A stretch of 64,000 nucleotides of DNA from the NCBI GenBank assembly GCA_038153405.1, contig JAYOYH010000012.1, forward strand, positions 32,001 through 96,000, written 5' to 3'. The translations under genes and the position numbers were made by a program. The notes beneath the pieces were generated by a model. The model ran no database searches. It worked only from the letters and a program-made list of their open reading frames with translations, and was not told the DNA's origin. Of this stretch, positions 1 to 17,696 are shown piece after piece. The number at the start of each line of letters is the position of its first letter. The first letter of the stretch is position 1. Origin of the DNA: Gemmatimonadota bacterium. GTDB lineage: Bacteria; Latescibacterota; UBA2968; UBA8231.

Positions 1-102
1 AACCAATTCGCCGCCCTTAGCCATCCTGAATGCGGGTATAAATCCCCAGTCGGAAATACCCGCCGTGCTGATAATGCCCCATCGCAGTGTGTTATTGGTC
101 AT
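1..102 (-). CDS. Gfo/Idh/MocA family oxidoreductase, N-terminal fragment (runs off the window edge)
   Basis: Not in the ORF track. Minus strand from ATG at 102 reads MTNNTLRWGIISTAGISDWGFIPAFRMAKGGELV, a typical Gfo/Idh/MocA Rossmann start (LRWGIIST). GGAGAGGAG ribosome-binding site just upstream. Confidence 0.7.
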   Translation of the reverse strand, partial: MTNNTLRWGIISTAGISDWGFIPAFRMAKGGELV

Positions 103-141: not shown

Positions 142-2040
142 TCAGTAGGCAATGGCCAGCGTGCCCATGTGCCGCTCTTCAAAGGCGTTGGCACGCACCC
201 GCAGCACCCAGACGTAGGTACCCGGCAGCAGGCGCATGCCGTCCAACGTGCCGTCCCAGGCCAGCTGCACTGGACCAATGCCGCGCTCTTCGTCGAGCAG
301 CGCACCGAGTCGGCGTCCAGCCAAGTCGTAAATTTCTAATTGCACGGGGGCTGGACGCGTGAGTTGCAGCACGTTGAAAAAGACGTCCCAAGCGTCGTTG
401 ACCCCATCGCCATTGGGCGTAAAAGTGCGCGTATCTATGGCGATATCGCCGACTAATTTGCCGATCTGCGGCTTGGGAATAGCCACCGACAGGCCCGATA
501 ATTCGGCGATATCAGCCGGCTCGAACTGCACCGCGTCACCCGGCGTAAAGGCCTGCGGCACCTCGGGCGCGCGGCTGGTGTAGGCGCGACCGGAAAAGGT
601 CGTGCCAAAGCGAAAAATTGGCAGATCAAAGGTCAGTTCGAGCAGTGCACCCTCGTCGCGCACCTGGGCAAAACTGATGCCGAAGCCATCGCTCTCGATA
701 AAGTCGACGTTATATTCATAGGGCTCGCCGTTGAGCTTGACCTCGCGCACGGCCGATGCGGCAACGCCCGTATCGACTTCTATGCGGTCGAAGCCGCGCA
801 CGGCACCGCCAACCTGAAACAGGCGCACAGCGTAGCGAAACGTAGCCGCTTTTTCCGCTTCGGCTAGGCGCGGAAAAACTTCGGCCACTAGGCGCCCGGC
901 AATCGGCGGCTGGATATAGGCAAAGGACATCTCGTCGACGCGACGCGCGGCAAAGAGGTCGCCGTTAAACTCGAACTGAAACTGCACGTAGCGACGCGGA
1001 TTGGGCGCGGCGATTAAATCGCCGTTGCTGGCGGCAAACCACGGGCTCCAGCGGTCCGTATCCTCGACAATACCGCCGCGCGACGTGGGCACGAGTTCGG
1101 CGTATTCCTGGCGCGTCACCTCGACATAGGTTCCCTCGCCCGGCAAGACGCCTGGAATAAACTCGCGAAAGACCAGCGGCGTGTCGTCTAAGCCGGTGCG
1201 CACGCGCACAGATAGCGACGAAAACTCGGGCGTGCCCAGCGCATCCTCAACCCAGTCCACCGCGCCGATCGCCGCGCGGTCACCCATATCGATGATGTCG
1301 GTATAGTAGGCGCCGCGGCGCAAAAAACCCGTGCCGTAGACTTCGACTTCGTCAATTTCAAAGGGCTGGTCGACCAGCGACTTTATTTTGACGTAGCGCG
1401 CATACTGCGACGGCACTTCGATATCGACGATCGGCTCTTCGTTCTCCGCATCGCGCGCCACCAAGACGTCGGGCGTGGTAAAGCTGTCGAGCGCCTCGTT
1501 GATCCACACTTCGTAGCCGCGCAGAAAGTCGTTGTGAAAAGGAGCCGACGGCGTCTCAACCACCGTGTTGCGCGGATAGAAGCGCACGCGCGATACGCCG
1601 ACGGGCGAGCCAAAGTCGAGAATCAGCCAGATGCCGCGCGTCGTCACGCGCGGCTCAAAGAGCGTTGGCTTGCGCTCGAAGGCGAGTTCGTGATCGCCGT
1701 TTACCACACCCTCGAGCTGGGACGGCGGAATGCGGCCCGACGTCGGCGCGGTGACCTTGCCGCTGACCAATACGCGCGCGGCAATATTCTCGCTTTCGTC
1801 AAAGCGCAGCGGCGCGATCCAACCCGGACTATAGTCGTAGTCGATGCTGCCATCGGGCGAGTTGGTCCGTTCGACCTCTCCGCTAAACGAATTGAGTACA
1901 AAGACCGGATCGGTGCCCAGACCACCGCCGCGCCAAGGGCGGACCGGCCCCCCGAGGACAAAGGTCTGGGCCGGCTGTGCTACCGCACCGACGGTGCACC
2001 CTAGCAGCGCCAACCACGCTATCAGCTGCATGCGTCTCAT
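142..2040 (-). CDS. Secreted protein with discoidin/F5-8-like domain and C-terminal FlgD-Ig / type-B CTD-like domain (632 aa)
   Basis: Start moved to ATG 2040 (ATGA overlap with upstream stop), giving signal peptide MRRMQLIAWLALLGCTVGAVA. Discoidin-like ILDFGSPVGVSRVRFYPR...EIDEVEVYG. C-terminal FTPNGDGVND...IYDLAGRRL...WDG...PGTY. Confidence 0.8.
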   Translation of the reverse strand: MRRMQLIAWLALLGCTVGAVAQPAQTFVLGGPVRPWRGGGLGTDPVFVLNSFSGEVERTNSPDGSIDYDYSPGWIAPLRFDESENIAARVLVSGKVTAPTSGRIPPSQLEGVVNGDHELAFERKPTLFEPRVTTRGIWLILDFGSPVGVSRVRFYPRNTVVETPSAPFHNDFLRGYEVWINEALDSFTTPDVLVARDAENEEPIVDIEVPSQYARYVKIKSLVDQPFEIDEVEVYGTGFLRRGAYYTDIIDMGDRAAIGAVDWVEDALGTPEFSSLSVRVRTGLDDTPLVFREFIPGVLPGEGTYVEVTRQEYAELVPTSRGGIVEDTDRWSPWFAASNGDLIAAPNPRRYVQFQFEFNGDLFAARRVDEMSFAYIQPPIAGRLVAEVFPRLAEAEKAATFRYAVRLFQVGGAVRGFDRIEVDTGVAASAVREVKLNGEPYEYNVDFIESDGFGISFAQVRDEGALLELTFDLPIFRFGTTFSGRAYTSRAPEVPQAFTPGDAVQFEPADIAELSGLSVAIPKPQIGKLVGDIAIDTRTFTPNGDGVNDAWDVFFNVLQLTRPAPVQLEIYDLAGRRLGALLDEERGIGPVQLAWDGTLDGMRLLPGTYVWVLRVRANAFEERHMGTLAIAY

Positions 2041-4781
2041 TGATTTAACCCCGCCGTCACCGTCATAAAGACCGTGCTGGCATCCTGGCGCTGGGCCCCT
2101 TTGAGACTGCGCCGCTGAAGCTGTGCCCCAGTGCGCGTAACAATCTGGTAGCCCTGATAGGCCGTTTGGTTGCGCAGCTGCACTACACCGGTCCACGACG
2201 TGGCGTCGCGTTCAGCGCCTGGGCGCATGCCTTCGAGCAGCCACAGGCGGCCTGCTTCAATGCCTATCTGCAGTTCGGTGCTAAAGAGCTGACGGCCGTA
2301 TTTGGGGAAGTAGCTGACGCCGATACTCTCGGCCAACAGCGGCTGGGTCCACATGAGAATGGCCAGCTGTTCGACGCTTTCCGAAGCCGGCAGGCGGCGG
2401 CTAAAGGGCCGTTCGCGCCGGTACTCGCTCTTCCAGCGCGGCTCCAGAACGCCCAAGCCGATGGGTATGCTCCACTCCGCCTTGTTGATCACGCCGACGA
2501 AAAAGCTGGTCTTGCGCCCTTCGCGCTGGCGCGTCGCTTCGGCCGTTTCGCGCTGTTGAGACCAGTCCCACTTTACGCGGTGAAAGAGCCGCACGCCGCG
2601 ACCTAGACGCTGGTCCACGTCGGCGTAGAGCGCATTTTTCCACGCGTCTAGGCCGGGCAGAACATCGCGCACGTCGATCATGCGCCCGGGCGCATCGAGC
2701 GGCTGCACCCACTGGCGCAGGTCGTCTGCTATATCGTCCTCGACGCGCGCCCCGTGCGCGGCCAAGCGCAGGCGTCCTCCGCGACCCAGCGCGTGTGCCA
2801 GCGTCGCCATGTAATAGTGCGAGCGCGTGCGACCATCGCCGGATAGGAGGCGCATATCCTGACGACCCCATACCCATTTTAGCCCGGGTATGATATCTAC
2901 CTGCACAAAGGCATTATAACCGCTGTGGTCCTTTTTGTAGGGGTAGTCCGGCAAAATGTCGTTCTCAAAACGATCTATCGTGCCGTTGTGGTTCATGTCG
3001 AGGCCAAAGAGAAATTCCGGCCGGTCGGAGCGATAGCGCAGAAAGGGCTCTTCGTAGTCGGGCAGTAAATTGCCGTTTTGGTTGTAATCGTTGAGGAAGT
3101 CGCCGTTTTCATCCAGGCCCGGCCAGGCAATCTCGCGCCGATCGGATTGGATCGTGCCGGCGCGCTGCGCCGCGTCGCTGCCCCAGTTGACAAAGAACGG
3201 ACGCTGCCATTCGGTTAGCCCGTTGAGATCGTCGTCGTCATCGACGAACTCGTAGAGCTGCGGTATCGGATTCTTATAGCGGATGCGCCCGCTCTGGTCG
3301 CTGATCCAATAATTGGTGCTGTAGTCGTCTTCAATGGAGAATAGTTCGGCAAAGAGCGTCCACGCGCCGCGCCGATACTGCGCGTCGAGATAGGAGGCCG
3401 ACGAGAGGTCGGCGCGCTCATAATGATCGGAAATAGCCGGATTGGGATAGCGGAAAAAACGGCGATTAAGCACGAACTCACCCTGCAGCGACAGGCCGCC
3501 CCAGTCCACGAGGTTCCAGTCGACGCCGATGAGTTCGCTGGCCGTCGGCAGCCCGTAGTCGAGGTGCACGACGCGGGTATTGCTGTTGTCCTGCACGTTT
3601 CCGCCCGAGCGCTCAACGGGCAGGAAAACAATTTCGGCATTGCGCGTCTGACCGTCGGTCTGCAGGTCCGATGCCATTTCAATGCGGTAGTCATTGGCCA
3701 CCGAGAGCTCGACGGTCACTCGGCGCAAATCGTCCGACTGGATGTCGTCAAAGTCCAAGCTGCCCAGGTCGTATTCGAGTAGGATACCCTCCTCGTCGCG
3801 CGCAAATAGGCGCCCACCCTGCACGATGCCACCCTCGACGGTCGGCAAGAAGCCGATGTCGCGCCCGCGCAGTTGGCGTCCGCTGGTGTCGACGAGCACG
3901 ATATCAAAACCGGCCAGCGCCGCGCCAACGGCGCCGCGCCCCGGCGAGTCGTCGCGCACGCGCACCCACAGCTTATCGAGCGGCTGATTCTGGCGCGCAG
4001 TGAGAATGCCGTGCAGCGGATTGCCCTCGTCAAATTGGACCTGTGTCAGCACGTTGTGCGCATTGACATAGGTCAGTCCCAGCGTCGTCTGGGCACCGAA
4101 CTGCGCTTCGACGTGGCCGCCCATGACCGTCGTCGAGTTGGTCTGCGCCTCTTCGTCGGGATTGCTCGGCCGCGAGAGCAGCACTGTGCTGCTGTAGCGC
4201 TCGGCCGCATAGTCGAGCCGCACGCCGTTAAAGCGCGGCTTGTAAAAAGTTAGCGGCGTAAAACGAGTAAAGATCTCATCGCCAATCATCAAGCGATAGG
4301 CGCCGGCGCCGCGCTGGTCCGATGCAATGACTAAGCGGCTAAAAAAATCGCGATAGGCCGGTCGCTGATCGCCCATCAGGCGCAGGCTCGACAAGCCTCC
4401 CAGATTCTTGTCCACCACGCTGCCGCGCGGTCCGGGCTGCTCCTGCGTCCAGCTGTAGACGAGCCAACCGCGTCCCAGCGGATTGCCAAAGGTATCGTAG
4501 GATTCTTCTCCTTCGAGCAGGCGGCTGAGATAGCGCGCATAGCCATCGCGCGCATAGTTGCTCTGCTGTGCATACCAAGGACTCATATAGGTCTCGGGCA
4601 AGTAGCGCGGCTCGTACCACTTGTGCAGGGCCGGCGAGACATAGTCCAACTCAAACGCCTCACCGTAGGGATTGATCGTGGCCGTGCCCCAGCGCCGCGG
4701 ATCGACTTCGCGCCCCTGGCCCCAGGCTGTCGCGCAGAGGACGAGCAGCCACAGCACGCTATGCAAGCACACGCCGTTCAA
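2037..4781 (-). CDS. Large hypothetical exported protein, probable outer-membrane beta-barrel with Ca-binding-like repeats (914 aa)
   Basis: Long ORF with TTG start overlapping the upstream stop, signal peptide ending ATAWG, many alternating amphipathic strands, DxNxNG-type repeats, and terminal strand VFMTVTAGLNQ. Confidence 0.7.
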   Translation of the reverse strand: MNGVCLHSVLWLLVLCATAWGQGREVDPRRWGTATINPYGEAFELDYVSPALHKWYEPRYLPETYMSPWYAQQSNYARDGYARYLSRLLEGEESYDTFGNPLGRGWLVYSWTQEQPGPRGSVVDKNLGGLSSLRLMGDQRPAYRDFFSRLVIASDQRGAGAYRLMIGDEIFTRFTPLTFYKPRFNGVRLDYAAERYSSTVLLSRPSNPDEEAQTNSTTVMGGHVEAQFGAQTTLGLTYVNAHNVLTQVQFDEGNPLHGILTARQNQPLDKLWVRVRDDSPGRGAVGAALAGFDIVLVDTSGRQLRGRDIGFLPTVEGGIVQGGRLFARDEEGILLEYDLGSLDFDDIQSDDLRRVTVELSVANDYRIEMASDLQTDGQTRNAEIVFLPVERSGGNVQDNSNTRVVHLDYGLPTASELIGVDWNLVDWGGLSLQGEFVLNRRFFRYPNPAISDHYERADLSSASYLDAQYRRGAWTLFAELFSIEDDYSTNYWISDQSGRIRYKNPIPQLYEFVDDDDDLNGLTEWQRPFFVNWGSDAAQRAGTIQSDRREIAWPGLDENGDFLNDYNQNGNLLPDYEEPFLRYRSDRPEFLFGLDMNHNGTIDRFENDILPDYPYKKDHSGYNAFVQVDIIPGLKWVWGRQDMRLLSGDGRTRSHYYMATLAHALGRGGRLRLAAHGARVEDDIADDLRQWVQPLDAPGRMIDVRDVLPGLDAWKNALYADVDQRLGRGVRLFHRVKWDWSQQRETAEATRQREGRKTSFFVGVINKAEWSIPIGLGVLEPRWKSEYRRERPFSRRLPASESVEQLAILMWTQPLLAESIGVSYFPKYGRQLFSTELQIGIEAGRLWLLEGMRPGAERDATSWTGVVQLRNQTAYQGYQIVTRTGAQLQRRSLKGAQRQDASTVFMTVTAGLNQ

Positions 4782-7303
4782 TAGACCACGTGTATCAGGC
4801 GCACGACCTGCGTACCCTCCGCTGCGCTATCGGTGCCAAAGCGCACCTGTACCGCGTAAATGCCCGGGTGGACGAGCGCGCCGCGTTCATCGCGCCCATC
4901 CCATGCGACGACGTGCTCGCCGCTGGGGCGCACGCGCCGCGTCGATAGGTCGCGCACCCGATGCCCTGACAGGTCAAAAATCCCGATGCCGAGCTCTTTT
5001 TCACCCTCCACATGATAGACCGACAGCTCGATGGATACCCGGTCGTTGATGCCGTCGTCGTTGGGCGTAAACACATTGGGGTTCACCACTACGTCGCGCA
5101 GCAGCTGCGTATCTTCTAAATCGGATACGACGACCAGCGTCTGCGACGAAACCAGCGCACTGGCGTCGCCGCTGCTAACGCGCTGCACGCGCCCGGGCCG
5201 CGTCTGCCGCTCGAGCTCGACGCTAAACACCGTGCTCTGCAGAAATACCTTGGTTCTGAACTTCAGCTCATAGATCTGGTTGCCCCTCAGCACGGGGCTG
5301 GGAAAGCGCAGGGCCACCGCCCCATCGGCATCTCGCTCGTCCTGCAGCACGCCCGGCCACAGGTCGCTCCCTCCTCCCAAGCGCAGCGCGGCATCGGCGC
5401 CTGCGCGCACCGAGACCAATTCGATGTGCACGTCCGACGACGAGCGCAGGCGCATCAGATCAAAGCCCGGATTGCCGCTGGCAAACTGCGGTTTCACATA
5501 TAGGATGAACTCGCGCTCGATGCCCGGCTCTACCTGCCAAATAGGCCAGATCTCGCCCAGCACGTTGTCGACGAGCGGCGGCTCAAAGTTGAGCTGCAGC
5601 GAACGGATGCGCGCAGCGCGCAGCGGCTCGCGCGAAACTAGTCGCACTTCGACCTGTGCATAGCCGCGCGGACTGGGCGACTTAAAGTCGACGCCCGAGC
5701 CCTCGTACATCTCGCTCCAACTGCTCCAATCGGGTCCCGCGCGCTCCTCAATGACGACGGCTGGACGGCGGCTCTCTGGAATCAGCTCCCACAGCGTCTT
5801 GGATATCTCGCGGCCGGTGATGGCAAAGTAGTGTGGAATTTCTTCGATCTGCTCACCGGTGCGGGTGCGCACCTCGATACGCGTGCCCGGCGGCGCATCG
5901 CCATCCCATTCTATCGTGGTAAAAAGGCGCGGCCGATTGAGGCGAATAAAGGGCGAGACCATCGCCACTTCCGAGACGTAGCCCTCGCCAAAGGCCTGCA
6001 CCTCGCTGAGTTCGCCGCTCTCTTCGCCCGTATTGCTGAATTCGAGGCGACGCACCTCGATGTAGCGCACTTCGCGCGTGCTGAACAACTCCTCGACGTG
6101 CTGATAGCCGCTCAGATTCTGGCGCTCGCCCAGCGAAGTCCACACTTGTTCGCCGTTGGCGCTAAACGCCCCGTCGGATATGCGCAGCTGATAAGCCGGC
6201 GGCGGTCCCTCCGGCATCAGCAGCTTGATGCGGTTGAGCCAGTACTTGGCACCCAGATCGAGCACCAGTTGGTTCTCGTCGGTCACCGGATCGTAAATGC
6301 GCATGGGAAAGGCCGAGCTGTAGAGACCGTCGGTGTAAATGCGAAAAAAGAGAAATTCGAACCCGCTCTCGCCGGCGCCCAACTCGCGCTCGCTCTGCGT
6401 GAGTTGCACGATATTTTCCCCCAGCGAATAGACCTCGACCTCGGCCAGGCGCGGGCGTTCGTGGCGGTAGTAGCGCACGGGGCCGCGCTCCGCTTCGGCC
6501 AGCGCGCTCCACACCTCTTCGCCAATGAGTATTTCGCGACCGGCAGGCGTGACGCGGAAATAGTCGACGGCGCCCTGGTCTTCTTCGGGCAGCAGCGCAT
6601 AGTCGGCGTTCGACACTTCTTCGGCGCGCGGTCCGTCCGTGTCGAGCACATCGATGCGCAGGTACTGCATCACCTCGCCGACGATGCCCTCCGGCACGGG
6701 GCGCTGCGGTTCGATATCAAAGACGTATTCGCGCTGGTCTTTGTTGGGCTGCGTCTCCAATCCAACGCGATAGAAGCGCCGACGCTGCTCTTCGCCAAAG
6801 CGCTGGCCGTCCGAGGCGACTACGCGAAACTTCAAGAAGGGATCGCCCTGTTCCCTGTCTACAAAGCGCAACACCACTCGGTGAGCCACTACGGCACGGC
6901 CCAGATCGACCTCGATAAACCAGTTGTCGATCGGCGTATCGCGCAGCGGCTCCCAATACGTCAGCGCGTCGCCGTCGAGCACCAGCGGACCGTCGAGCAC
7001 GTTGCTGCCGGCCTCGTGCACGCCGCCCTGCAGCGTGTCGTTGGACACAAAGGGATTGACGTAGACAAAGCGCTCTGCGTCGAGCGAGACGTTGATATCG
7101 CTGCGCAGAAAGCGCGGCTCTACCGCACCGTCATCGCCGAGAACTTGCACGCCGGGCGGCGTTTTCCACAGCTGCCAATCTTCGGCCCGATCGATGCGCA
7201 CCTGCGTGGATAGCAGTCGATAGCCCAAGGAATCTTGCGCACTGGCGGCCTTAAGTAAACAGAGGGCGCACAAGAGCGTGCATCGCACGGAAAAAGAGAG
7301 CAA
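4778..7303 (-). CDS. Secreted protein with two discoidin-like domains and C-terminal FlgD-Ig / type-B CTD-like domain (841 aa)
   Basis: Signal peptide ending KAASA. Motifs FIEVDLGRAVVAHRVVLRF and LVLDLGAKYWLNRIKL. C-terminal PNVFTPNDDGIND...IFDLSGHRVRDL...WDGRDERG...PGIY. Confidence 0.8.
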   Translation of the reverse strand: MLSFSVRCTLLCALCLLKAASAQDSLGYRLLSTQVRIDRAEDWQLWKTPPGVQVLGDDGAVEPRFLRSDINVSLDAERFVYVNPFVSNDTLQGGVHEAGSNVLDGPLVLDGDALTYWEPLRDTPIDNWFIEVDLGRAVVAHRVVLRFVDREQGDPFLKFRVVASDGQRFGEEQRRRFYRVGLETQPNKDQREYVFDIEPQRPVPEGIVGEVMQYLRIDVLDTDGPRAEEVSNADYALLPEEDQGAVDYFRVTPAGREILIGEEVWSALAEAERGPVRYYRHERPRLAEVEVYSLGENIVQLTQSERELGAGESGFEFLFFRIYTDGLYSSAFPMRIYDPVTDENQLVLDLGAKYWLNRIKLLMPEGPPPAYQLRISDGAFSANGEQVWTSLGERQNLSGYQHVEELFSTREVRYIEVRRLEFSNTGEESGELSEVQAFGEGYVSEVAMVSPFIRLNRPRLFTTIEWDGDAPPGTRIEVRTRTGEQIEEIPHYFAITGREISKTLWELIPESRRPAVVIEERAGPDWSSWSEMYEGSGVDFKSPSPRGYAQVEVRLVSREPLRAARIRSLQLNFEPPLVDNVLGEIWPIWQVEPGIEREFILYVKPQFASGNPGFDLMRLRSSSDVHIELVSVRAGADAALRLGGGSDLWPGVLQDERDADGAVALRFPSPVLRGNQIYELKFRTKVFLQSTVFSVELERQTRPGRVQRVSSGDASALVSSQTLVVVSDLEDTQLLRDVVVNPNVFTPNDDGINDRVSIELSVYHVEGEKELGIGIFDLSGHRVRDLSTRRVRPSGEHVVAWDGRDERGALVHPGIYAVQVRFGTDSAAEGTQVVRLIHVVY

Positions 7304-7521
7304 ATAGATTCGACCTAACCTGAATAAATCGGAGCAACAGACGGGAATTGTGCTATACAGACGCGCGATTAAACAAAGTGGAGAACGCCCGTTGCCGCAA
7401 TACGGCCGCCTGCCCGACGCGCACCTATTGTCAAGCAGTGGATTTGGACGTACTTATACGTGTGACGCGCTCCTGCCGCTTCGGCACGTCGACGATTCAA
7501 TTCATCACAGAGGATCAACCA

Positions 7522-9147
<1,626 letters not shown>

Positions 9148-9177: not shown

Positions 9178-9219
9178 GTGCGCCGATGGGCAACAGAGCC
9201 CTTGGTGCACCGTTTTTTT
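9178..9219 (+). terminator. Rho-independent terminator after fumarase
   Basis: Imperfect stem CGGTGCGCCGA...TTGGTGCACCG followed by T7, between convergent genes. Confidence 0.6.
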
Positions 9220-10318
9220 AGTAGGTGTTTTGCGGCTGCGGCCACTGATATTGGGGCACCCAAGGCAGTTCGTAGCCCAGCTGGTGCGCGGCGCGCTGCC
9301 ACCAGCGCGGATCGGCCAGCGCGGCGCGACCGATAAACACGCCATCGGCCTGGCCCGTGCGCAGAATCAGCTCGGCCTGTCGTCCGTCCGTTATCATACC
9401 GACCGTGCCCACGGGCAGGTCGACCTCGGCGCGAATGCGTGCGGCCAGAACGGTCTGATACCCCGGACCGGGATGGACCGGACCATGGGGCACATTGCCA
9501 CCGCTCGATACGTCAATTAAATCTACGCCGCGCTCCTTGGCGCGTTGGACAAATGCAGCAGTGCGCTGCACGTCGCCCTCTACGTCGTGCCAATCGGTCG
9601 CAGAGACGCGCACCAGCAGCGGCATGCTGTCGGGCATCTGCCGACGCATTGCATCGATGACGGCCAGCGGCAGACGCATCCGATTTTCGTCGCTTCCTCC
9701 CCAAGCATCGGAGCGATTATTGACCAACGGACTGAGAAAAGAGCTCAACAGATAACCGTGTGCCCCGTGGATTTCTAGCGCATCAAAGCCCGCCGCAACG
9801 GCGCGTCCAGCCGCCGCCGCAAAATCGCCGATCACCCCGTTGATATCGCCTTCGGTCATAGCCAGCGGCGCGGGGCCGTCGCCGAATGCCGCATCGGTGG
9901 GCCCCAGCGTTTGCCAGCCCCCCTGCGCAGGGGACACGTAGCCTCTCTCTTGGGCAAAGGGCGGATGCGTCGAGGCTTTTCGTCCGGCATGGGCAAGTTG
10001 CACGGCGATCTTGGCACCGTTGTTCTGCGCGTGCACAAAGTCCGTTACGCGCCGCCAACCCGCTACTTGTGCCTCGTTCCACAAACCCGTATCGCGAGGC
10101 GAGATGCGCCCCACCGGATGGACGGCGGTCGCCTCGGCAACAATTAGGGCCGCACCGCCCGTAGCCAGCGATCCCAGGTGCACCAAGTGCCAGTCGTTAG
10201 GCACGCCCGGCGCGCTGTCCGCATCGCACGAGTATTGACACATGGGAGAAACCCAACCGCGGTGACGCAGTTCCAATGAGCGCAGTTGGAGTGGTTCAAA
10301 CAGCAGCGGCTTGTTCAC
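9218..10318 (-). CDS. NADH:flavin oxidoreductase / old yellow enzyme (YqjM/NamA-like)
   Basis: SPMCQYS, QLAHAGRKAS and IHGAHGYLL motifs. Probable GTG start at 10318 after AGAGAGG. Confidence 0.9.
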   Translation of the reverse strand: MNKPLLFEPLQLRSLELRHRGWVSPMCQYSCDADSAPGVPNDWHLVHLGSLATGGAALIVAEATAVHPVGRISPRDTGLWNEAQVAGWRRVTDFVHAQNNGAKIAVQLAHAGRKASTHPPFAQERGYVSPAQGGWQTLGPTDAAFGDGPAPLAMTEGDINGVIGDFAAAAGRAVAAGFDALEIHGAHGYLLSSFLSPLVNNRSDAWGGSDENRMRLPLAVIDAMRRQMPDSMPLLVRVSATDWHDVEGDVQRTAAFVQRAKERGVDLIDVSSGGNVPHGPVHPGPGYQTVLAARIRAEVDLPVGTVGMITDGRQAELILRTGQADGVFIGRAALADPRWWQRAAHQLGYELPWVPQYQWPQPQNTY

Positions 10319-10489
10319 GATAATCCTCTCTCGTACACAGTGTTCAATAGGTCGGCAACGCCTAACATATGGACGCACACTGGGCGCGCAATCCGTCGCG
10401 GTACGCGCCGCATTTTGCCATGAGCCCTACGCTATGCCGATATTATGGGCCGTTTCGTCTCACCCAAAAATAACTACGAGAGTAGGACG

Positions 10490-11728
10490 ATGGATTCCGA
10501 CCGCATGCTCGCGCCTGAAGAGGCGCGCGATATTGTTTTAGAGCACATCCATGCGCTGGGCGTTGAGCGCGTTGCCCTGCTCGATGCCGTGGGCCGCGTG
10601 CTCGCGCGCGACGTGCTGGCGCGCCGCGACAACCCGCCGCACGACAATTCGGCAATGGACGGCTTTGCCGTGCGCTATGCCGACGCGCAAGGTGCCACTG
10701 CAGAGAACCCGGTAACGCTGCAGATCATAGAGGACATTCCCGCCGGCAGCGTGCCGCAGAAGGCACTTGGGGCCGGACAGGCTAGCCGCATTATGACCGG
10801 TGCCGTCGTCCCGACAGGCGCCGATGCCATCGTGCCGGTCGAAGACACGCGCGGCGAGGGCGATCAGGTCTCCATCCTCGACGTCGACCAACTGGGTGCG
10901 CACATCCGCGCGCGCGGCGAAGATATGCGCAAGGACGCCCCCGTCTTGAAGGCCGGTCAGGCCCTTGGGCCCGGAGAAATTTCCGTGCTGGCGACGCTGC
11001 AGCAGAGCTTTGTCACCGTCTATCGAAGGGCCCGCGTGGCCATTATCACCACCGGCGACGAGCTCGTTGAGATCGAAGACGAGGTCGGACCGGGGCAGAT
11101 CGTCAACGGCAATACGGCCGCGTTAGCCGCCTTCTGTCGCGCGCACGGCGCCGAACCGCTCATGTTGCCCATTGCCCGCGATGACCGGGCCGATATTCGC
11201 CGCACGATAGAAGCGGCGCTCGATGCGGACATCGTGCTCTCTTCGGGCGGCGTTTCAGTGGGCGACTACGATTTCGTCAAAGAGGTGCTCGACGAAATGA
11301 ATGCCAAGACCATTTTTTGGCGCGTGGCCATGAAGCCAGGCAAACCGCTGCTGTTTTGCACCATCGGCTCGACGCCCTATTTCGGTCTGCCCGGCAATCC
11401 CGTGTCGAGCATGATGTCTTTTTTGCAGTTTGTGCGGCCAGCCCTCTACAAGGCTGGCGGCCATCCGCCCGTGGCCTGGCCGCTGCCGCAGGCCACCGCG
11501 CTGCTCGACAGCGCCGTCGACAACGACGGCAATCGCCGCAACTACATGCGCTGCAGGCTCTACTACTGCGACGAGAGCGGCGCGCTGCGCGCCGAAGTAT
11601 TTGCCCAACAGGGCTCGCATATGGTTTCGTCTATGATTGGCGCCAACGGCATCGCCCTCTTTGAACCCGAAGCGCGCGCGGAGGCCAACGAGCGCATTGC
11701 CGTGCAAATCATCGGTCCCATTATCTGA
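10490..11728 (+). CDS. moeA: Molybdopterin molybdotransferase
   Basis: NSAMDGFAVR, RIMTGA, TTGDEL, SSGGVSVGDYDFVK, MKPGKP and GLPGNPVS motifs. Confidence 0.93.
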   Translation: MDSDRMLAPEEARDIVLEHIHALGVERVALLDAVGRVLARDVLARRDNPPHDNSAMDGFAVRYADAQGATAENPVTLQIIEDIPAGSVPQKALGAGQASRIMTGAVVPTGADAIVPVEDTRGEGDQVSILDVDQLGAHIRARGEDMRKDAPVLKAGQALGPGEISVLATLQQSFVTVYRRARVAIITTGDELVEIEDEVGPGQIVNGNTAALAAFCRAHGAEPLMLPIARDDRADIRRTIEAALDADIVLSSGGVSVGDYDFVKEVLDEMNAKTIFWRVAMKPGKPLLFCTIGSTPYFGLPGNPVSSMMSFLQFVRPALYKAGGHPPVAWPLPQATALLDSAVDNDGNRRNYMRCRLYYCDESGALRAEVFAQQGSHMVSSMIGANGIALFEPEARAEANERIAVQIIGPII

Positions 11729-11745
11729 GAGGAGGCCCGTAGCCC

Positions 11746-12756
11746 ATGAACCGCCCCCCCGACCAATTCAAGTGCATTGCCGTAGCGCAGCTTCGCCGCT
11801 TTGCCGCAGCCTGTCTAAGGGCCAGCGGCATGACGTCCGAACACGCCGACCAGTTGGCTGAGCTGCTGAGCAACTCCGACCTACGCGGCGTGCGTTCGCA
11901 CGGCACGCGGCAGATCCTCGGCTATTGTGGTAGCCTGCGCGAAGGGCGCGTCAACCCGACGCCCGATATACAAATCGTGCAGGAAACCGACACGGCTATT
12001 CTCGTCGACGGCGACGGCGGCCTGGGCTACGCGCCGATGATGCACGCCACCGAACGGGCCATTGCCAAGGCGAAAGAGAAGAAAGTGGCTATTGGCGCTA
12101 CCCGTCACCACGGCCACTACGGCTCGGCCGGACACTACGTGCGCCGCGCCATGGAAGAGGGCTGCACCGCCTTTTCCGTGCAGGGTTCGCACCCGGCCCA
12201 CTTTGGCGAAGGCGGCGGCAACAAGGGGCAGTCCTCGGCCTATTGGGGCAACCCGCCCATCTGCTTTGGCTTTCCATCCGATGAAGAGCCGCCGCTCGTC
12301 CTCGATGCGGCAACCTGCATTTTGGCCGACTACCAGCGCGGCGACCAATTCGACGCACTGCAGTCGCTCATCCCCGCCGCCTTTTTTAAGAGCATGGGCT
12401 ACACGGGCGCAGCTACGGCGCTGGGCGGCACCTTTGTTGGCCAGAGCAACGCGGCTGCCCGCGCCGTCGAAGAAAAGTGGCCCGCCGCGCGCGGAGGTGG
12501 ACTGATTATCGTACTCGATATAGAGGCCTTTGTGCCGGCCGCAGAATTTCGCAGTGGCATCGACTTTCTCGTGCGCGGCGTGCGCGAAACGATGGAACCG
12601 CTGCCTGGCTACGACGAAGCGACGCTGCCTGGCACGGTCGAACACCGCAACCAGTTGGCCTACGCCGAAGAAGGCGTACCCTATGCGCTAGAAGATCTGC
12701 AGCGTTTAGAAGAATGCGGCCGCCTGTGCGGCATTGAACCGGAGTGGGCCCAGTGA
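11746..12756 (+). CDS. Ldh_2 family (malate/L-lactate/ureidoglycolate dehydrogenase-like) oxidoreductase
   Basis: DLRGVRSHG, VDGDGGLG, HHGHYG, GNPPICFG and LVLDAAT motifs. Confidence 0.85.
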   Translation: MNRPPDQFKCIAVAQLRRFAAACLRASGMTSEHADQLAELLSNSDLRGVRSHGTRQILGYCGSLREGRVNPTPDIQIVQETDTAILVDGDGGLGYAPMMHATERAIAKAKEKKVAIGATRHHGHYGSAGHYVRRAMEEGCTAFSVQGSHPAHFGEGGGNKGQSSAYWGNPPICFGFPSDEEPPLVLDAATCILADYQRGDQFDALQSLIPAAFFKSMGYTGAATALGGTFVGQSNAAARAVEEKWPAARGGGLIIVLDIEAFVPAAEFRSGIDFLVRGVRETMEPLPGYDEATLPGTVEHRNQLAYAEEGVPYALEDLQRLEECGRLCGIEPEWAQ

Positions 12757-13427
12757 ATATCCCCGTCTACGCGCCGCCGCCCGTTGACCGGCTAGTCTTT
12801 CGCGCCCAACTGCGCCCAGCGGCGGCGAACCGCCTGCCCGATAAGCTGGAGCGATTGAAGCTACTAGCAGAAAAGAACATAGCCAGCGGCCAGATGCTGA
12901 CAGCCAGTCTGTTTCAAGCGCAAGACCAACTCTTTCTCTACTACGAGTGCCCGCGCACCAAGCTGCCAGCTAGCGAAGTGGCCGCCCCGCTAAACGACTT
13001 GCTAGAAGACTGGCCCGGCGCAGCAGCCCCAAGGTGCTGGGTGCCGATGATGGATATCTTTCACTACAGCCGACCGCTGAGCATCGAGCACTGGCGACGC
13101 GGCGCAGCGCCGCAGGAGTGCACTGGTCGCATTATCTACCTGCGGCCAGAAATGGTCAGCAGCTATATTTTCTATCATTTCCAACTGCAAGAGGAAAAAC
13201 CCGGCGCGCTCGGCAGCAAGTACGGACTAATTTCACAGCACGAAAATTTGCTCTTCTTCTACATGGAGAAGCCCGACGTAGCGGAGAGCGAATCGTATAC
13301 CGGACACCTCAAGACGCAGAACACGCCGCCCAATTGGGGCGAGGTCATGGATCCGCATTTTCAACCCTGGCCCGACGAAGAGGGCGAGCGCCTGTGGCGC
13401 CCTATCGAATGCATCTTCTCCGCTTGA
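12753..13427 (+). CDS. Hypothetical protein, two tandem L-rhamnose-mutarotase-like domains
   Basis: GTGA overlap with upstream stop. Internal duplication (LFLYYE...WVPMMDIFHY versus LLFFYME...WRPIECIFS) with YxxxH in the second half. Confidence 0.55.
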   Translation: MNIPVYAPPPVDRLVFRAQLRPAAANRLPDKLERLKLLAEKNIASGQMLTASLFQAQDQLFLYYECPRTKLPASEVAAPLNDLLEDWPGAAAPRCWVPMMDIFHYSRPLSIEHWRRGAAPQECTGRIIYLRPEMVSSYIFYHFQLQEEKPGALGSKYGLISQHENLLFFYMEKPDVAESESYTGHLKTQNTPPNWGEVMDPHFQPWPDEEGERLWRPIECIFSA

Positions 13428-13497
13428 GCAGGCGCGTTTACATGCGCTGCAGGCAGCCACTGTTCACCTAGACACCCACTGATAGAAAGGGATTAGC

Positions 13498-14289
13498 ATG
13501 AGTATTTTTTCACTGGAAGGTAAAGTAGCGCTGGTGACGGGCGCTGGCCGCGGCATCGGTCGCGCCATCGCCGAAGGGCTGGCCGCCCAAGGGGCCAAGG
13601 TCGCCTGTGCAGCGCGCAGCGTCGACCAACTGGAGGAATTGGCCCAGTCGATCCGCGACGCCGGCGGCGAGGCGATGGCCGTGGCCATTGACATGGGCGA
13701 TATGAATTCACTCGACCGCGCCCTTGAGACCGTGGCCAATGCCTATGGCCACCTCGATATCCTCGTCAACAACGCCGGCATGAACGCGCGTCAACCCATC
13801 GACGAGGTGACCGAAGAAAATTACGATCGCATTATGAACGTCAATCTGAAGGGCCTTTACTTCCTCAGCCAAAAAGCGGCGCGCTACATGGCGCAAAACG
13901 GAGCGGGTAAAATTATCAACATCGGCTCGCTGACCACGGGCTACGCGCTGGCCAAGGTCTCCGTCTACACCGCGACCAAAGGAGCCGTCGGCCAGCTAAC
14001 CAAGGCGCAGGCCGTCGAATTTGGCAAGCACAACATTCAGGTCAACGCCATCTGTCCGGGCTTTGTATTGACCTCGCTAACGGAAAAAATGTGGGCCGAT
14101 CCGACCATGCGGCAGTGGGGCGAAAGCCGGGTGGCGCTCGGTCGGTTGGCCACGCCCAAAGACATGGCGGGCACGGCAGCCTTCCTCGCCTCGCCGGCCT
14201 CCGACTACGTAACGGGCCAGTGCATCTACGTCGACGGCGGCTTTATGGCCGGCGACAATTGGCCGTTGCCCGAGGCAGCCGCTAGCTAG
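13498..14289 (+). CDS. Short-chain dehydrogenase/reductase (gluconate 5-dehydrogenase/KduD-like)
   Basis: TGAGRGIG, NNAG, YTATK (YxxxK) and VNAICPG motifs. N-terminus MSIFSLEGKVALV. Confidence 0.9.
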   Translation: MSIFSLEGKVALVTGAGRGIGRAIAEGLAAQGAKVACAARSVDQLEELAQSIRDAGGEAMAVAIDMGDMNSLDRALETVANAYGHLDILVNNAGMNARQPIDEVTEENYDRIMNVNLKGLYFLSQKAARYMAQNGAGKIINIGSLTTGYALAKVSVYTATKGAVGQLTKAQAVEFGKHNIQVNAICPGFVLTSLTEKMWADPTMRQWGESRVALGRLATPKDMAGTAAFLASPASDYVTGQCIYVDGGFMAGDNWPLPEAAAS

Positions 14290-14317
14290 CGCGCGGCGCA
14301 CAGCGGCCAACGCTATA

Positions 14318-14351
14318 CGGGGGACCTTCAAAGTAGGAGGTCCCCCGCTTT
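14318..14351. terminator. Hairpin between convergent SDR and VOC genes, probable terminator
   Basis: CGGGGGACCTTC-AAAGTA-GGAGGTCCCCCG stem-loop followed by CTTT. Confidence 0.6.
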
Positions 14352-14362
14352 GCGCTAGCCAA

Positions 14363-14965
14363 CTAGGCTTCCTCCACCGGCTTGACGTAGGCCTTCTTGG
14401 GCCTGCGCTCGGCCGACAACGTCGCGCGCGTGCGCGCGCTCAGTCGCTCGAGCGCGTCGGCCACGTGCACTTCGGCAATGTGGTGGTCGCCGCGCTCGAC
14501 GCGCAGCAGATGGGCCTCAAACAGCACCTGCGCGTGCGCGCAGCCATCCGGCGGTTCGAATTTATAAGAGGCCAGTTCGATGCGCTGGCCTAGCGGATCG
14601 CGAAAGTATATCGAATCCATAAAGCCGCGATCGATTGCACCCGTATGCGGCACGCCGCGCGCCTCCAGCCGCGCAGGAATCTGCGCAAAGGTCGCGCGCG
14701 ACACGCTAAAAGCTAGGTGGTGCACATGGCCTATGTCTTCGCTATTGGACCGGGTGTCGACGTCGCGGCGTTCGTTAGTGAATACGGTGATGAGCCGCCC
14801 ATCGCCCGGATCGAAGTAGAGATGCGATTCGTCGGGGTTGTCCAAATTCGGCTGCTCAAAAATAAAGGGCATGCCGAGCACGCCTTCCCAAAAGTCAATC
14901 GACACTTGGCGCGTGGCGCCGACGAGCGTGATGTGGTGCACGCCCTGCACTTGAATCTTCTGCAT
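14363..14965 (-). CDS. VOC / glyoxalase family protein
   Basis: GVHHITL, HLYFD, VHHLAF and SIYFRDPLGQRIEL motifs. Confidence 0.88.
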   Translation of the reverse strand: MQKIQVQGVHHITLVGATRQVSIDFWEGVLGMPFIFEQPNLDNPDESHLYFDPGDGRLITVFTNERRDVDTRSNSEDIGHVHHLAFSVSRATFAQIPARLEARGVPHTGAIDRGFMDSIYFRDPLGQRIELASYKFEPPDGCAHAQVLFEAHLLRVERGDHHIAEVHVADALERLSARTRATLSAERRPKKAYVKPVEEA

Positions 14966-15030
14966 GGCTCTTCTCCACCGTGTGAGTTCTCACCGTTGAT
15001 ACTACGCGAAAACGCGCGAAATGGGAGTGT

Positions 15031-15618
15031 ATGAAAAAAGTAGAAATCTTAGCTCAACGCGGCCTCGTAGACGCCTTTTTTAAACTCGAAGAGGCGGAAC
15101 TGCGCCACGAGCGGCGCGACGGCTCGATGAGCGAACCCATGCACCGCCTCAACTTGGAGCGCGGTGACGGAGTGGCCGCACTGGTCTACCACCCACAGCG
15201 CGATGTGCTCGTCTTTGTGCGCCAGTTTCGCTACCCGGCCTATGTGCGCAGCGGACCGGGTTGGTTGGTCGAACTGCCGGCCGGCATGCTCGATCACGAC
15301 GAAGAACCTATCGACTGCATGCGACGCGAGATCGGCGAAGAGACGGGCTACGCCATCCGCCACATCGAACTCGTTTCCTCATTTTACCTTTCACCCGGAA
15401 GCTCTTCGGAGCGCATCTTTCTCTATTACGCCGAGATCGATCCTCTCGCAGAGCCCAGCGCGGGCGGCGGTTTGGCCAACGAACAGGAAGACGTCGAGCG
15501 GGTAGAACTCCCGCTGTCCGAGGCGTGGCGCCAACTCGACGCCGGCGCGTTTATCGACGCAAAGACCATCATTGCGCTGCAGTGGATGCGCGCGCGCGCC
15601 TCGCTGGGCTGTCCCTAA
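15031..15618 (+). CDS. Nudix hydrolase, ADP-ribose / nucleoside-diphosphate-sugar pyrophosphatase type (NudF/NudK-like)
   Basis: Nudix box AGMLDHDEEPIDCMRREIGEETGY, plus VRQFRYP, SPG and DAKTIIALQW. Confidence 0.88.
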   Translation: MKKVEILAQRGLVDAFFKLEEAELRHERRDGSMSEPMHRLNLERGDGVAALVYHPQRDVLVFVRQFRYPAYVRSGPGWLVELPAGMLDHDEEPIDCMRREIGEETGYAIRHIELVSSFYLSPGSSSERIFLYYAEIDPLAEPSAGGGLANEQEDVERVELPLSEAWRQLDAGAFIDAKTIIALQWMRARASLGCP

Positions 15619-15622
15619 GCTC

Positions 15623-15651
15623 TTGAAGCTCGACGCAAAATACAATAGTAT
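15623..15651 (+). promoter_or_regulatory. Candidate sigma70 promoter for acs
   Basis: TTGAAG-N17-TAGTAT in an AT-rich intergenic gap about 75 nt before the ATG. Confidence 0.45.
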
Positions 15652-15725
15652 TATGGGCAAAGCTCAACACCCACTACTGCGACTTACTACAAACCTACCA
15701 CGAGAAGCAACACAGGAGTTCCGCT

Positions 15726-17696
15726 ATGGCAGACGAAGTATATCAGCCCTCAGCCTCCCTGCAAGAGAGGGCCTTTATCAACAGCATGGAGGCCTACCAA
15801 CAGGAGTACGAGCGTTCCATTGCCGATCCTGAGGCGTTCTGGGCAGAAAAAGCGGAAGCGTTCCATTGGTTCAAAAAATGGGACACCGTCTGCTCGTACA
15901 ATTACGACATGAGCAAAGGCCCCATCTCGATCAAGTGGTTTGAGGGCGGCAAGACGAACATCACCTACAACTGCCTGGACCGCCATCTCGACGGCAAAGG
16001 CGATCAGACGGCGATCGTCTGGGAGGGCAATAGCCCCGACGAAGACGCGACACTAACCTACAGGGAACTGCACGAGCGGGTCTGCAAATTCGCCAACGTG
16101 CTCAAGAGCCGCGGCGTTAAAAAGGGCGATCGCGTGTCGATCTACATGCCGATGGTGCCCGAATTGGCCGTGGCCATGTTGGCCTGTGCGCGCATCGGCG
16201 CTATGCACTCGATCGTCTTTGGCGGCTTTTCCGCCGACGCGCTGGCCGATCGCATCGTCGATGCCACCTGCACCACCGTGCTGACCTGCGACGGCATCTA
16301 CCGCGGCGCCAAGCCCGTGGTGATGAAGCCGCTAGTCGATGAGGCCATGGCCAACGCCGAAAGGCAAATGGGACAGCCCGTCACTACCTGCATCGTCGTG
16401 CGCCACCACGCCGACGACGCCGATTTCACCTGCCCCATGCAGGACGGCCGCGACGTCGACTACGCCGAGGCCATGGCCGCCGCATCGGCCGACTGCCCGC
16501 CTGAAGAAATGGACGCTGAAGACCCGCTCTTTATCCTCTATACTTCGGGCTCGACCGGCAAACCCAAGGGCGTGCAGCACACCGTGGGCGGCTATATGGT
16601 CTACACGGCCACTACGCACAAATACGTCTTTGACTACCACGACGGCGATATCTATTTCTGCGCCGCCGATATCGGCTGGATCACCGGTCACTCCTACATC
16701 ATCTACGGCCCGCTGGCCAATGGCGCGACCACCATGATGTTCGGCGGCATTCCGACCTACCCCGACGCAGAGCGCTACTGGCAGATCATCGAAAAGTGGA
16801 ACGTCACCCAGTTTTACACCGCGCCGACGGCTATTCGCGCCATTGCCGCAGCCGGCGAAGAGTTGCCGACTAAATACGATATGGCCTCGCTGAAAATCCT
16901 CGGCAGCGTCGGCGAACCGATCAACCCGGAAGCCTGGCGCTGGTACTATACCAAGGCGGGCAAGGAGCGCAGCCCGATCGTCGATACCTGGTGGCAAACC
17001 GAGACGGGCGGCATTCTCATTACGCCGCTGCCCGGTGCCACGCCGCTCAAACCCGGTTCGGCAACTTTTCCCTTTTTTGGCGTGCAACCCGTCGTGCTCG
17101 AACCGGAGAAGGGCACCGAGATCGAAGGCAACGACATCAGCGGCGTGCTTGCACTAAAAGCGCCCTGGCCCGGCCAGATGCGCACCGTCTACGGCGACCA
17201 CGAGCGCTTTGAGAACACCTATTTCCAGCAGTATAAAGGCTATTACTTTACCGGCGACGGCTGTCGCCGCGACGCGGACGGCTACTACTGGATTACCGGA
17301 CGCGTCGACGACGTGATCAACGTATCCGGCCATCGAATGGGCACCGCCGAAGTAGAGAGCGCGCTCGTGCTGCACGGCAAAGTGGCCGAGGCCGCCGTCG
17401 TTGGCTTCCCGCACAACATCAAGGGCGAGGGGATTTACGCCTACGTCACGCTCAACGCCGGCGAGGAATACACCGACGCGTTGAAAGACGAGCTAAAAAA
17501 GCACGTGCGTCAGGTCATCGGTCCCATTGCCACTCCCGACGTCATTCACTGGGCACCGGGCCTGCCCAAGACGCGCTCGGGCAAAATCATGCGGCGCATT
17601 CTCCGCAAGATATCAACCAACGAGATCGATCAGCTCGGCGATACGTCAACGCTGGCCGATCCGGGCGTGGTCGACCAGTTGCTCGCCAACCGCTAG
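15726..17696 (+). CDS. acs: Acetyl-CoA synthetase (AMP-forming)
   Basis: [33 protein letters not shown] and [12 protein letters not shown] motifs. CAGGAG RBS. Confidence 0.96.

Follow-up and report, generated by a model that had tools for sequence, protein, structure and literature searches.

Substrates of the Bacteroidota type IX secretion system (T9SS) that bear a type B tail exit SprA on cognate 14-strand PorP/SprF barrels, which are encoded directly downstream, and stay anchored (PMC12618676, PMC9143113, PMC10994853); SprB-SprF and PG1035-PorP-PorE are examples (PMC12618676, PMC9143113). In SusC/SusD systems a lidded barrel takes up glycans (PMC7618045), and TPR-tolQ-tolR-tolR loci with vWA force transducers have been described whose function is unknown (PMC12204202). 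The locus analysed here has likenesses to all three. It lies in the window, by which we mean the whole 64,000-nucleotide stretch (positions 32,001 to 96,000 of contig JAYOYH010000012.1, assembly GCA_038153405.1, GTDB phylum Latescibacterota), where genes A, B and C encode two paralogous, predicted secreted proteins with lectin-like domains, A and C, on either side of a large predicted outer-membrane barrel, B. By analogy, the system to which it belongs has the gene logic of type B/PorP pairs and the energy links of SusC/SusD. The genes belong to a real and conserved envelope module that is apparently undescribed in the literature; no description of the barrel family or of the cassette was found in a search that had most subscription papers and all supplements outside it (supplements could hold phylum-wide T9SS tables), nor was T9SS in Latescibacter, and DUF4159, a domain of the associated transducers, was found in the Pfam paper alone.

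As these systems are described in the accessible parts of the papers cited, the locus resembles type B secretion in its FTPNGDGxND-type tail, in having the substrate gene directly upstream of the barrel gene, in the occurrence of paralogous pairs plus orphans, and in possessing SprA and a separate type-A tail class with PorV/PorU. PorP/SprF, however, is a FadL-type barrel of 14 strands and about 33 kDa, whereas B has about 900 aa and 23-24 predicted strands; the tails here fall below the TIGR04131 cut-off and have a Tyr end, a single lectin body is common to all the partners, searches for GldL, GldM and GldN found none of them though their controls were silent too, and the phylum is not Bacteroidota. 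With SusC/SusD and utilisomes the system shares paralogous barrel-partner pairs, predicted carbohydrate-binding partners and, at its clade II barrels (see below), an ExbB/ExbD motor and a TonB-like membrane-anchored protein. In contrast to SusC/SusD, neither plug nor TonB-receptor families match B, a CBM32/Ig protein bearing a T9SS-type tail takes the place of the TPR-helical lipoprotein as partner, the two genes stand in the opposite order, the transducer has DUF4159 at its end and the cassette contains no glycosidases. The TPR-tolQ-tolR-tolR loci likewise combine a TPR gene with a single ExbB/TolQ, a pair of ExbD/TolR and a membrane-anchored, His-bearing transducer whose C-terminal domain is not of TonB type; here that domain is DUF4159, and a barrel family, the candidate outer-membrane target, and T9SS-tailed lectins are linked, neither of which is mentioned in the accessible part of PMC12204202. 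The reading we favour, at a probability of roughly 45%, is that lectins exported through SprA serve as lids on motor-energised import barrels, a SusC/SusD-like logic built from unrelated parts.

The four-gene cassette

All three genes lie on the minus strand. Gene A (4778..7303, 841 aa, TTG start) encodes a protein with a signal-peptide-like N-terminus, two discoidin/CBM32-like domains and a type-B-like C-terminal domain ending VVY; gene B (2037..4781, 914 aa, TTG start) encodes the predicted 23-24-strand barrel, which belongs to clade I of an unnamed family; gene C (142..2040, 632 aa, ATG start) encodes an all-beta paralogue of A (23% identity over 437 aa) with a tail ending IAY. The original prediction of three exported proteins joined by 4-nt overlaps agrees with the reading frames: the A stop and B start share TTGA (4778..4781, minus strand), the B stop and C start share ATGA (2037..2040, minus strand), and the N-termini, read by eye, are signal-peptide-like and each end before Gln. 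The TTG start of B is the same in five 914-aa orthologues (gene calls, not experiments). The ATGA overlap was found again in related loci L026, L027 and L028, and the A/B junction in L026 and L027 is a 1-nt overlap. The predicted mature forms of A, B and C all begin with Gln (window 7238-7303, 4719-4781 and 1978-2040), which recalls the Q-rule reportedly followed in Bacteroidetes, with Gln as the first mature residue.

It had been proposed that these three genes form the unit and that a single barrel serves both flanking proteins. Neither proposal survived. The apparent triad arises because the window edge cuts through a longer locus, which runs beyond the edge as A-B-C-(oxidoreductase)-B'-LRR-C''; B' is a B paralogue just outside the window, and in relatives it directly follows C. 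The intervening Gfo/Idh/MocA oxidoreductase gene, whose 5' end occupies positions 1..102 (minus strand), is an insertion of about 1 kb between C and B' that lies outside the conserved cassette: the C stop and the B' stop lie 3,682 nt apart here, and in six relatives the same distance is 2,654-2,821 nt. The order A-B-C-B' occurs again in the window's genome (G000; other G numbers denote related genomes, L numbers loci, and C plus a number a contig) on C10 and two times on C35. The unit is a four-gene cassette, A-B-C-B'. Since A precedes B and C precedes B', the cassette consists of two lectin-then-barrel pairs, and on this gene order A is likely the partner of B, and C the partner of B'.

Gene order was examined in 73 loci from other genomes (from the best 80 of 635 matches, biased to close kin) and proved to be conserved, as had been expected. 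An A orthologue is found upstream of the B orthologue in 33 of the 35 loci with enough DNA (5 more are at the locus edge) and a C orthologue downstream in 36 of 36 (4 more at the edge). B' genes are preceded by a tailed gene in 54 cases out of 57, and in related loci as a whole a tailed gene stands before 93 of the 98 barrels with enough upstream DNA. G000 itself holds 23 B-family and 53 A/C-family genes (76 in all), and the neighbour order given for it rests on genes from a simple in-house caller. There, the gene before the barrel is type-B-like in 15 cases, another barrel in 3 and another gene in 4, with one contig end and no type-A-tailed gene; seen from the tails, 0/48 type-A-tailed genes precede a barrel. 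Four of the 23 barrels precede a type-B-like tailed gene. Lectin and barrel distances correlate (Mantel r 0.46-0.65), but these values are non-independent and driven by cassette duplication and were not used as evidence of co-evolution.

A promoter and terminator scan of the locus gave a signal at chance level. RNA runs held 8% or less of the words, and short contigs 99-100% alike fall within A, B and C. Because no RNA contig spans any of the A/B/C junctions and so few words were held, neither expression nor co-transcription is established by these runs.

Predicted structures of the lectins and the barrel

Discoidin-like domains, predicted for both outer proteins, were found in both. A has two stretches, at 6800..6988 (minus strand; aa 106-168, PF00754) and 6053..6280 (minus strand; aa 342-417, PF22633). 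In the sequence of C a single stretch matches, and only weakly (E about 0.008); the C model (pLDDT 92, all-beta) confirms a CBM32/discoidin fold at 1330..1791 (minus strand; mature residues 63-216), with Z 15.6 and rmsd 2.0 over 123 residues against 4a42. Both are predicted to be sugar-binding proteins. No catalytic domain was detected in either by Pfam scan, or in the model of C, and A and C as enzymes were therefore rejected. Neither has a SusD Pfam match, and the model of C is an all-beta CBM32/Ig structure, not a SusD/TPR helical lipoprotein. A search of the C body in the ESM Atlas gave nothing beyond F5/8C. The lectins of G000 are homologous along the body and not in the tail alone.

The C-terminal domains of A (4781..5080, minus strand; FTPNDDGIND...VVY) and C (145..426, minus strand; FTPNGDGVND...IAY) share the motif FTPN(G/D)DG(V/I)ND...I(Y/F)DLxG...WDG...PGxY. 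The earlier suggestion that these are type-B-like tails is supported. In its favour are the motif, a score at the level of PF13585 (CHU_C; C 30.8 and A 26.8 bits, cut-off 27) and the C-terminus of the C model, which matches the PorU C-terminus (6za2; Z 11.6, rmsd 2.6, 99 residues), an Ig-like T9SS C-terminal-domain fold. Against it, the TIGR04131 cut-off of 35 is reached by neither A (19) nor C (33), and the paralogues scanned reach 32.1 at most. With the FlgD_ig-type PF13860 (cut-off 27), the A tail scores 28.1 bits.

The expectation that the 914-aa middle protein is a large barrel of unrelated appearance is supported by its model (pLDDT 83, pTM 0.84; 85-sequence alignment), in which 23 consecutive long strands are predicted over mature residues 129-890 with residues 84-93 as the likely 24th. 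The count of 23-24 (range 22-26) starts from 22 regular strands and adds residues 129-136 and, probably, 84-93; TonB-dependent transporters such as SusC have 22 strands. Covariance analysis aimed at the seam (247 sequences, 118 effective) picked up some hairpins between neighbours but missed the pairing of the first strand with the last. Both inserts of B would lie on the extracellular side, because the short turns and the C-terminus fall on the other. Insert 1 (3552..4046, minus strand; mature 225-389) is a beta-rich domain on this long-loop side. Insert 2 (2928..3332, minus strand; mature 463-597) carries acidic DxDxDG/DxNxNG repeats and likely binds calcium; it is the most conserved region of the family, mean pairwise identity among 42 diverse members being 0.43 (0.54 in the core) where other regions have 0.24-0.35. 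The first 80 residues at the N-terminus, for which the model is poor, contain conserved tyrosines and may plug the lumen; the Tyr-rich segment of mature residues 29-83 (4470..4634, minus strand) is the candidate small plug.

Sequence searches placed B in no known family. There was no Pfam or NCBIfam match at E<=1; PF11751/TIGR03519 (PorP/SprF) matched neither B nor its 21 paralogues, the TonB plug PF07715 and receptor-barrel families matched neither B nor paralogues, usher Pfam families did not match B, and the B profile, run against PDB sequences, returned a single match at E 0.26. B was not assigned to the PorP/SprF family, which it matches neither in size nor in sequence, and the TonB-receptor and SusC families were likewise rejected for it. 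Three fold searches returned generic large barrels only (TM <=0.27; best Z about 14 at rmsd 7-12): SlpA (8ae1), MtrB (6r2q), LptD and FimD are large antiparallel barrels like B, with TM-scores of 0.27 or less, rmsd of at least 4.5 and identities of 14% or less. No PorV/PorP chain was among the best 50 rows of these searches, which is still compatible with a distant relation.

Homologues of B that bear a name are nearly all from Candidatus Latescibacterota or labelled Gemmatimonadetes (20 distant clusters checked), the exceptions being one Planctomycetota record, one Handelsmanbacteria record and several unclassified ones. In the ESM Atlas B met only unnamed Latescibacterota/Gemmatimonadota clusters, with DUF6029 at 0.89 as no more than a lead. 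In a FastTree tree of the barrels (a maximum-likelihood tree did not complete), two clades each have SH-like support of 100. Clade I includes B, is lectin-linked and is expanded in G000 and G009; clade II comprises the core operons and lectin-free expansions.

Type IX secretion and motor genes

The genome was searched for the type IX machinery, as had been suggested, and SprA (TIGR04189, 606.6 bits, cut-off 200), PorU (665 bits, cut-off 420) and the PorV family (255 bits, cut-off 90; two proteins above it) all score above their curated cut-offs. Two tail classes are present in G000. Among 53 type-B-like tails the xPNxDxxND motif is seen in 47 and a Tyr end in 50; among 48 type-A-like tails PNP[F/A]N is seen in 38, and the end is mostly Arg or Lys. 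PorP/SprF (PF11751) was not found in G000 and is over cut-off in one of 41 genomes of the window's family. GldN and GldM in G000 and GldL_N in the 41 family genomes were not found, but the controls of these searches, that for PorP/SprF included, were silent too, and GldK was not searched.

Across 151 genomes of the phylum the barrel is present in 95 and SprA in 143. All 86 genomes with a type-B-like tail (E<=1e-18) also have the barrel. Nine barrel-positive genomes fall below the tail threshold, and the three that were looked at each hold one diverged lectin in a core operon. In 51 genomes of three families (f2-f4) there is neither barrel nor type-B-like tail, nor any TPR or transducer match, and 50 of these have SprA; therefore, at the thresholds used, the motor module follows B and not SprA. 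The DUF4159 transducer occurs in 87/151 genomes and the TPR protein in 72/151 among the matches listed, and all of these genomes are barrel-positive.

Operons of relatives were read from 20 regions around the top barrel matches in five genomes. An operon in which a lectin gene is followed by a small PorV-like barrel, then by one or two B genes, and these by the 1,080-aa TPR protein, ExbB and ExbD(-ExbD), is found in G000 (C7), G003, G006 and G012, and a rearranged operon without the small barrel in G060 and on C34 of G000. A third operon in G000 (C85:8437-14676) runs PorV-like, TPR (1,079 aa), ExbB, ExbD, DUF4159-like to the contig end, with no barrel visible. The DUF4159 proteins beside clade II barrels are laid out like TonB, with an N-terminal membrane helix and a linker rich in Pro and Lys; the helix is His-bearing in the G003 and C85 copies and not in that of C34. 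In G003, 10 of the 11 DUF4159 genes lie within 3.1 kb of a barrel, 8 of them within 400 nt. Barrel match pieces, which are not copy numbers, outnumber lectins by 66 to 2 in G060, 16 to 1 in G003 and 6 to 1 in G006. G009 has 4 barrels and about 13 lectins.

Import, display or export

If the lectins are indeed lids on energised importers, A and C would leave through SprA by their type-B-like tails, probably with a small PorV-like shuttle, and A would dock on B and C on B'. The N-terminal segment of B would act as a gating plug, and nutrient import through the gated barrels would be proton-powered, with ExbB/ExbD acting in trans via the TonB-like DUF4159 proteins, in clade I presumably as in clade II; the substrate may be a glycan or a small organic compound. 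We count for this reading the gene pairing, the co-occurrence of tail and barrel, the presence of SprA, PorU and PorV, the CBM32 lectins with their shared body and no catalytic domain, and the motor operons and transducer genes of clade II, together with the excess of barrels over lectins in G060 and G003, which looks like a receptor-like expansion. Two roles had been offered for the middle protein. Export or anchoring of its neighbours keeps the lectin-then-barrel coupling, but the separate PorV-like barrel and the barrel excess weaken it as a PorP/SprF-like shuttle; the evidence across the family agrees better with a capture module of SusC/SusD type.

Several observations weigh against import. 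The cassette at the window has no motor, transducer, glycosidase or regulator gene, and the motor linkage was seen for clade II barrels while B is in clade I. In the complete genome G009 the two sampled barrels are both clade I and the TPR and transducer matches are weak; G002 has neither match. No TonB box was seen in B by eye, and Pfam plug and TonB-receptor matches are absent as well. G000 also holds 10 ordinary TonB-receptor plug matches elsewhere in the genome and a canonical TonB operon. The acidic insert is conserved, and is kept in barrels with no adjacent lectin, unlike the ligand loops of TonB receptors, which are variable. Lectins outnumber barrels 2.3 to 1 in G000, and strict 1:1 lids cannot hold for all lectins because just 15 of the 53 lectin genes directly precede a barrel. 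Outside G000 there are two loci, L111 and L115, where a type-A-tailed gene does precede a barrel. Finally, related genomes are not independent samples, which applies to all the co-occurrence counts.

Alternatively, B could be a giant functional stand-in for PorP/SprF that imports nothing: it would collect or receive the cognate type-B-like protein at SprA and keep it anchored as an adhesin on the surface, ExbBD replacing GldLM in pulling carrier and cargo off SprA. The cargo-then-barrel order of Bacteroidota type B pairs (as described in PMC12618676) argues for this, as do the PF11751 search (no match in G000, one of 41 family genomes over cut-off), the GldL, GldM and GldN searches (with their silent controls), the conserved extracellular insert, which could be a tail-docking site, and the LRR, FG-GAP/UnbV and PPIase genes among the neighbours. 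Set against these are the barrels far in excess of lectins in G060 and G003, the separate small barrel between lectin and B in conserved operons, the SprA-positive genomes that lack barrel, TPR protein and transducer alike, and the size of B, about three times that of PorP; we consider this explanation unlikely. It is also conceivable that the lectins sit on small PorV/PorP-like barrels or are released, and that B is an independent energised channel linked to them by a shared substrate alone. A PorV-like gene does lie directly after the lectin gene in G000 C7, G003, G006 and G012, many barrels stand alone and 38/53 lectins are not directly before a barrel, yet most clade I loci have no adjacent small barrel and still show tight, one-direction coupling of lectin and barrel across genera, and the pairs duplicate together, with the caveat given for the Mantel values. 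This is improbable.

The least probable of these explanations makes B an exporter or assembler of the tailed proteins, in the manner of an usher or of a two-partner pore, or else their link to an Agl-Glt-like motility or surface-structure machine. ExbB with two ExbD and a TPR protein does recall AglRQS-Glt, the lectins occur in tandem arrays with a Tyr end in nearly all and dedicated PPIases nearby, and the barrel is near ushers in size, FimD aligning over the whole of it (Z 14.0, rmsd 7.2). However, this score is tied with those of unrelated porins. Ushers have a 24-strand barrel with a mid-barrel plug and periplasmic N- and C-terminal domains; the model of B is without usher-type periplasmic domains and places both inserts on the long-loop side. 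Further, the tail has a T9SS C-terminal-domain fold and SprA is present.

The fullest form of the import reading is that Latescibacterota have a second class of energised importer, not homologous to TonB-dependent transporters, with 24-strand calcium-loop barrels, ExbB/ExbD acting via DUF4159-tipped TonB analogues, a 1,080-aa TPR scaffold and lectin lids from a type IX translocon without GldLM. In this complete form the proposal is doubtful. Were it true, active outer-membrane import would not be confined to TonB-dependent transporters, and a widespread uncultured phylum would have coupled type IX secretion to another energy chain and another anchor. DUF4159 would gain a role, as would an orphan expansion that is among the largest in these genomes (76 genes in G000 alone), and the TPR-ExbB-ExbD-ExbD loci, left with no target in the accessible part of PMC12204202, would have partners that can be tested. 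A display-only role would still extend type B secretion past Bacteroidota, with a barrel unrelated to PorP.

Several other gene families were seen near the cassettes. In A-B-C-B' cassettes, leucine-rich-repeat lipoproteins were seen either after B' or interposed between lectins (L014:3907-5436; L016:10130-11974; L017:2035-3324 and 5217-6596). SurA/parvulin-like PPIase lipoproteins stand beside cassettes in G000 (C3:108806, C4:145692, C5:101569, C6:108936, C7:89449, C10:27785, C60:20318, C79:7706) and are probably their dedicated foldases. All eight G000 copies of an unnamed lipoprotein-like family of about 230-260 aa lie within 7 kb of a barrel gene (C10:811, C3:121378, C6:119550, C60:19522, C10:29570, C34:22951, C7:88532, C7:76715). 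At L109-L113 in G060, clade II barrels with the ending GFTE(F/Y)G... stand alone by the dozen, some of them fragmented, and several lie beside the same gene of roughly 443 aa, which we take to be transposase-like. The neighbours of the cassette at window 7348-9147 (plus strand) and 9218-17696, presumably genes of ordinary metabolism and unrelated to it, we take by eye to be fumarate hydratase-like, flavin oxidoreductase-like, MoeA-like and acetyl-CoA synthetase-like. CBM9-like proteins of about 300 aa that end in SWGxIK cluster near G000 barrels and lectins (for example L018:4858-5724 and L006:7322-8221); this motif is found near the C-terminus in 17 G000 genes and may be a third sorting signal.

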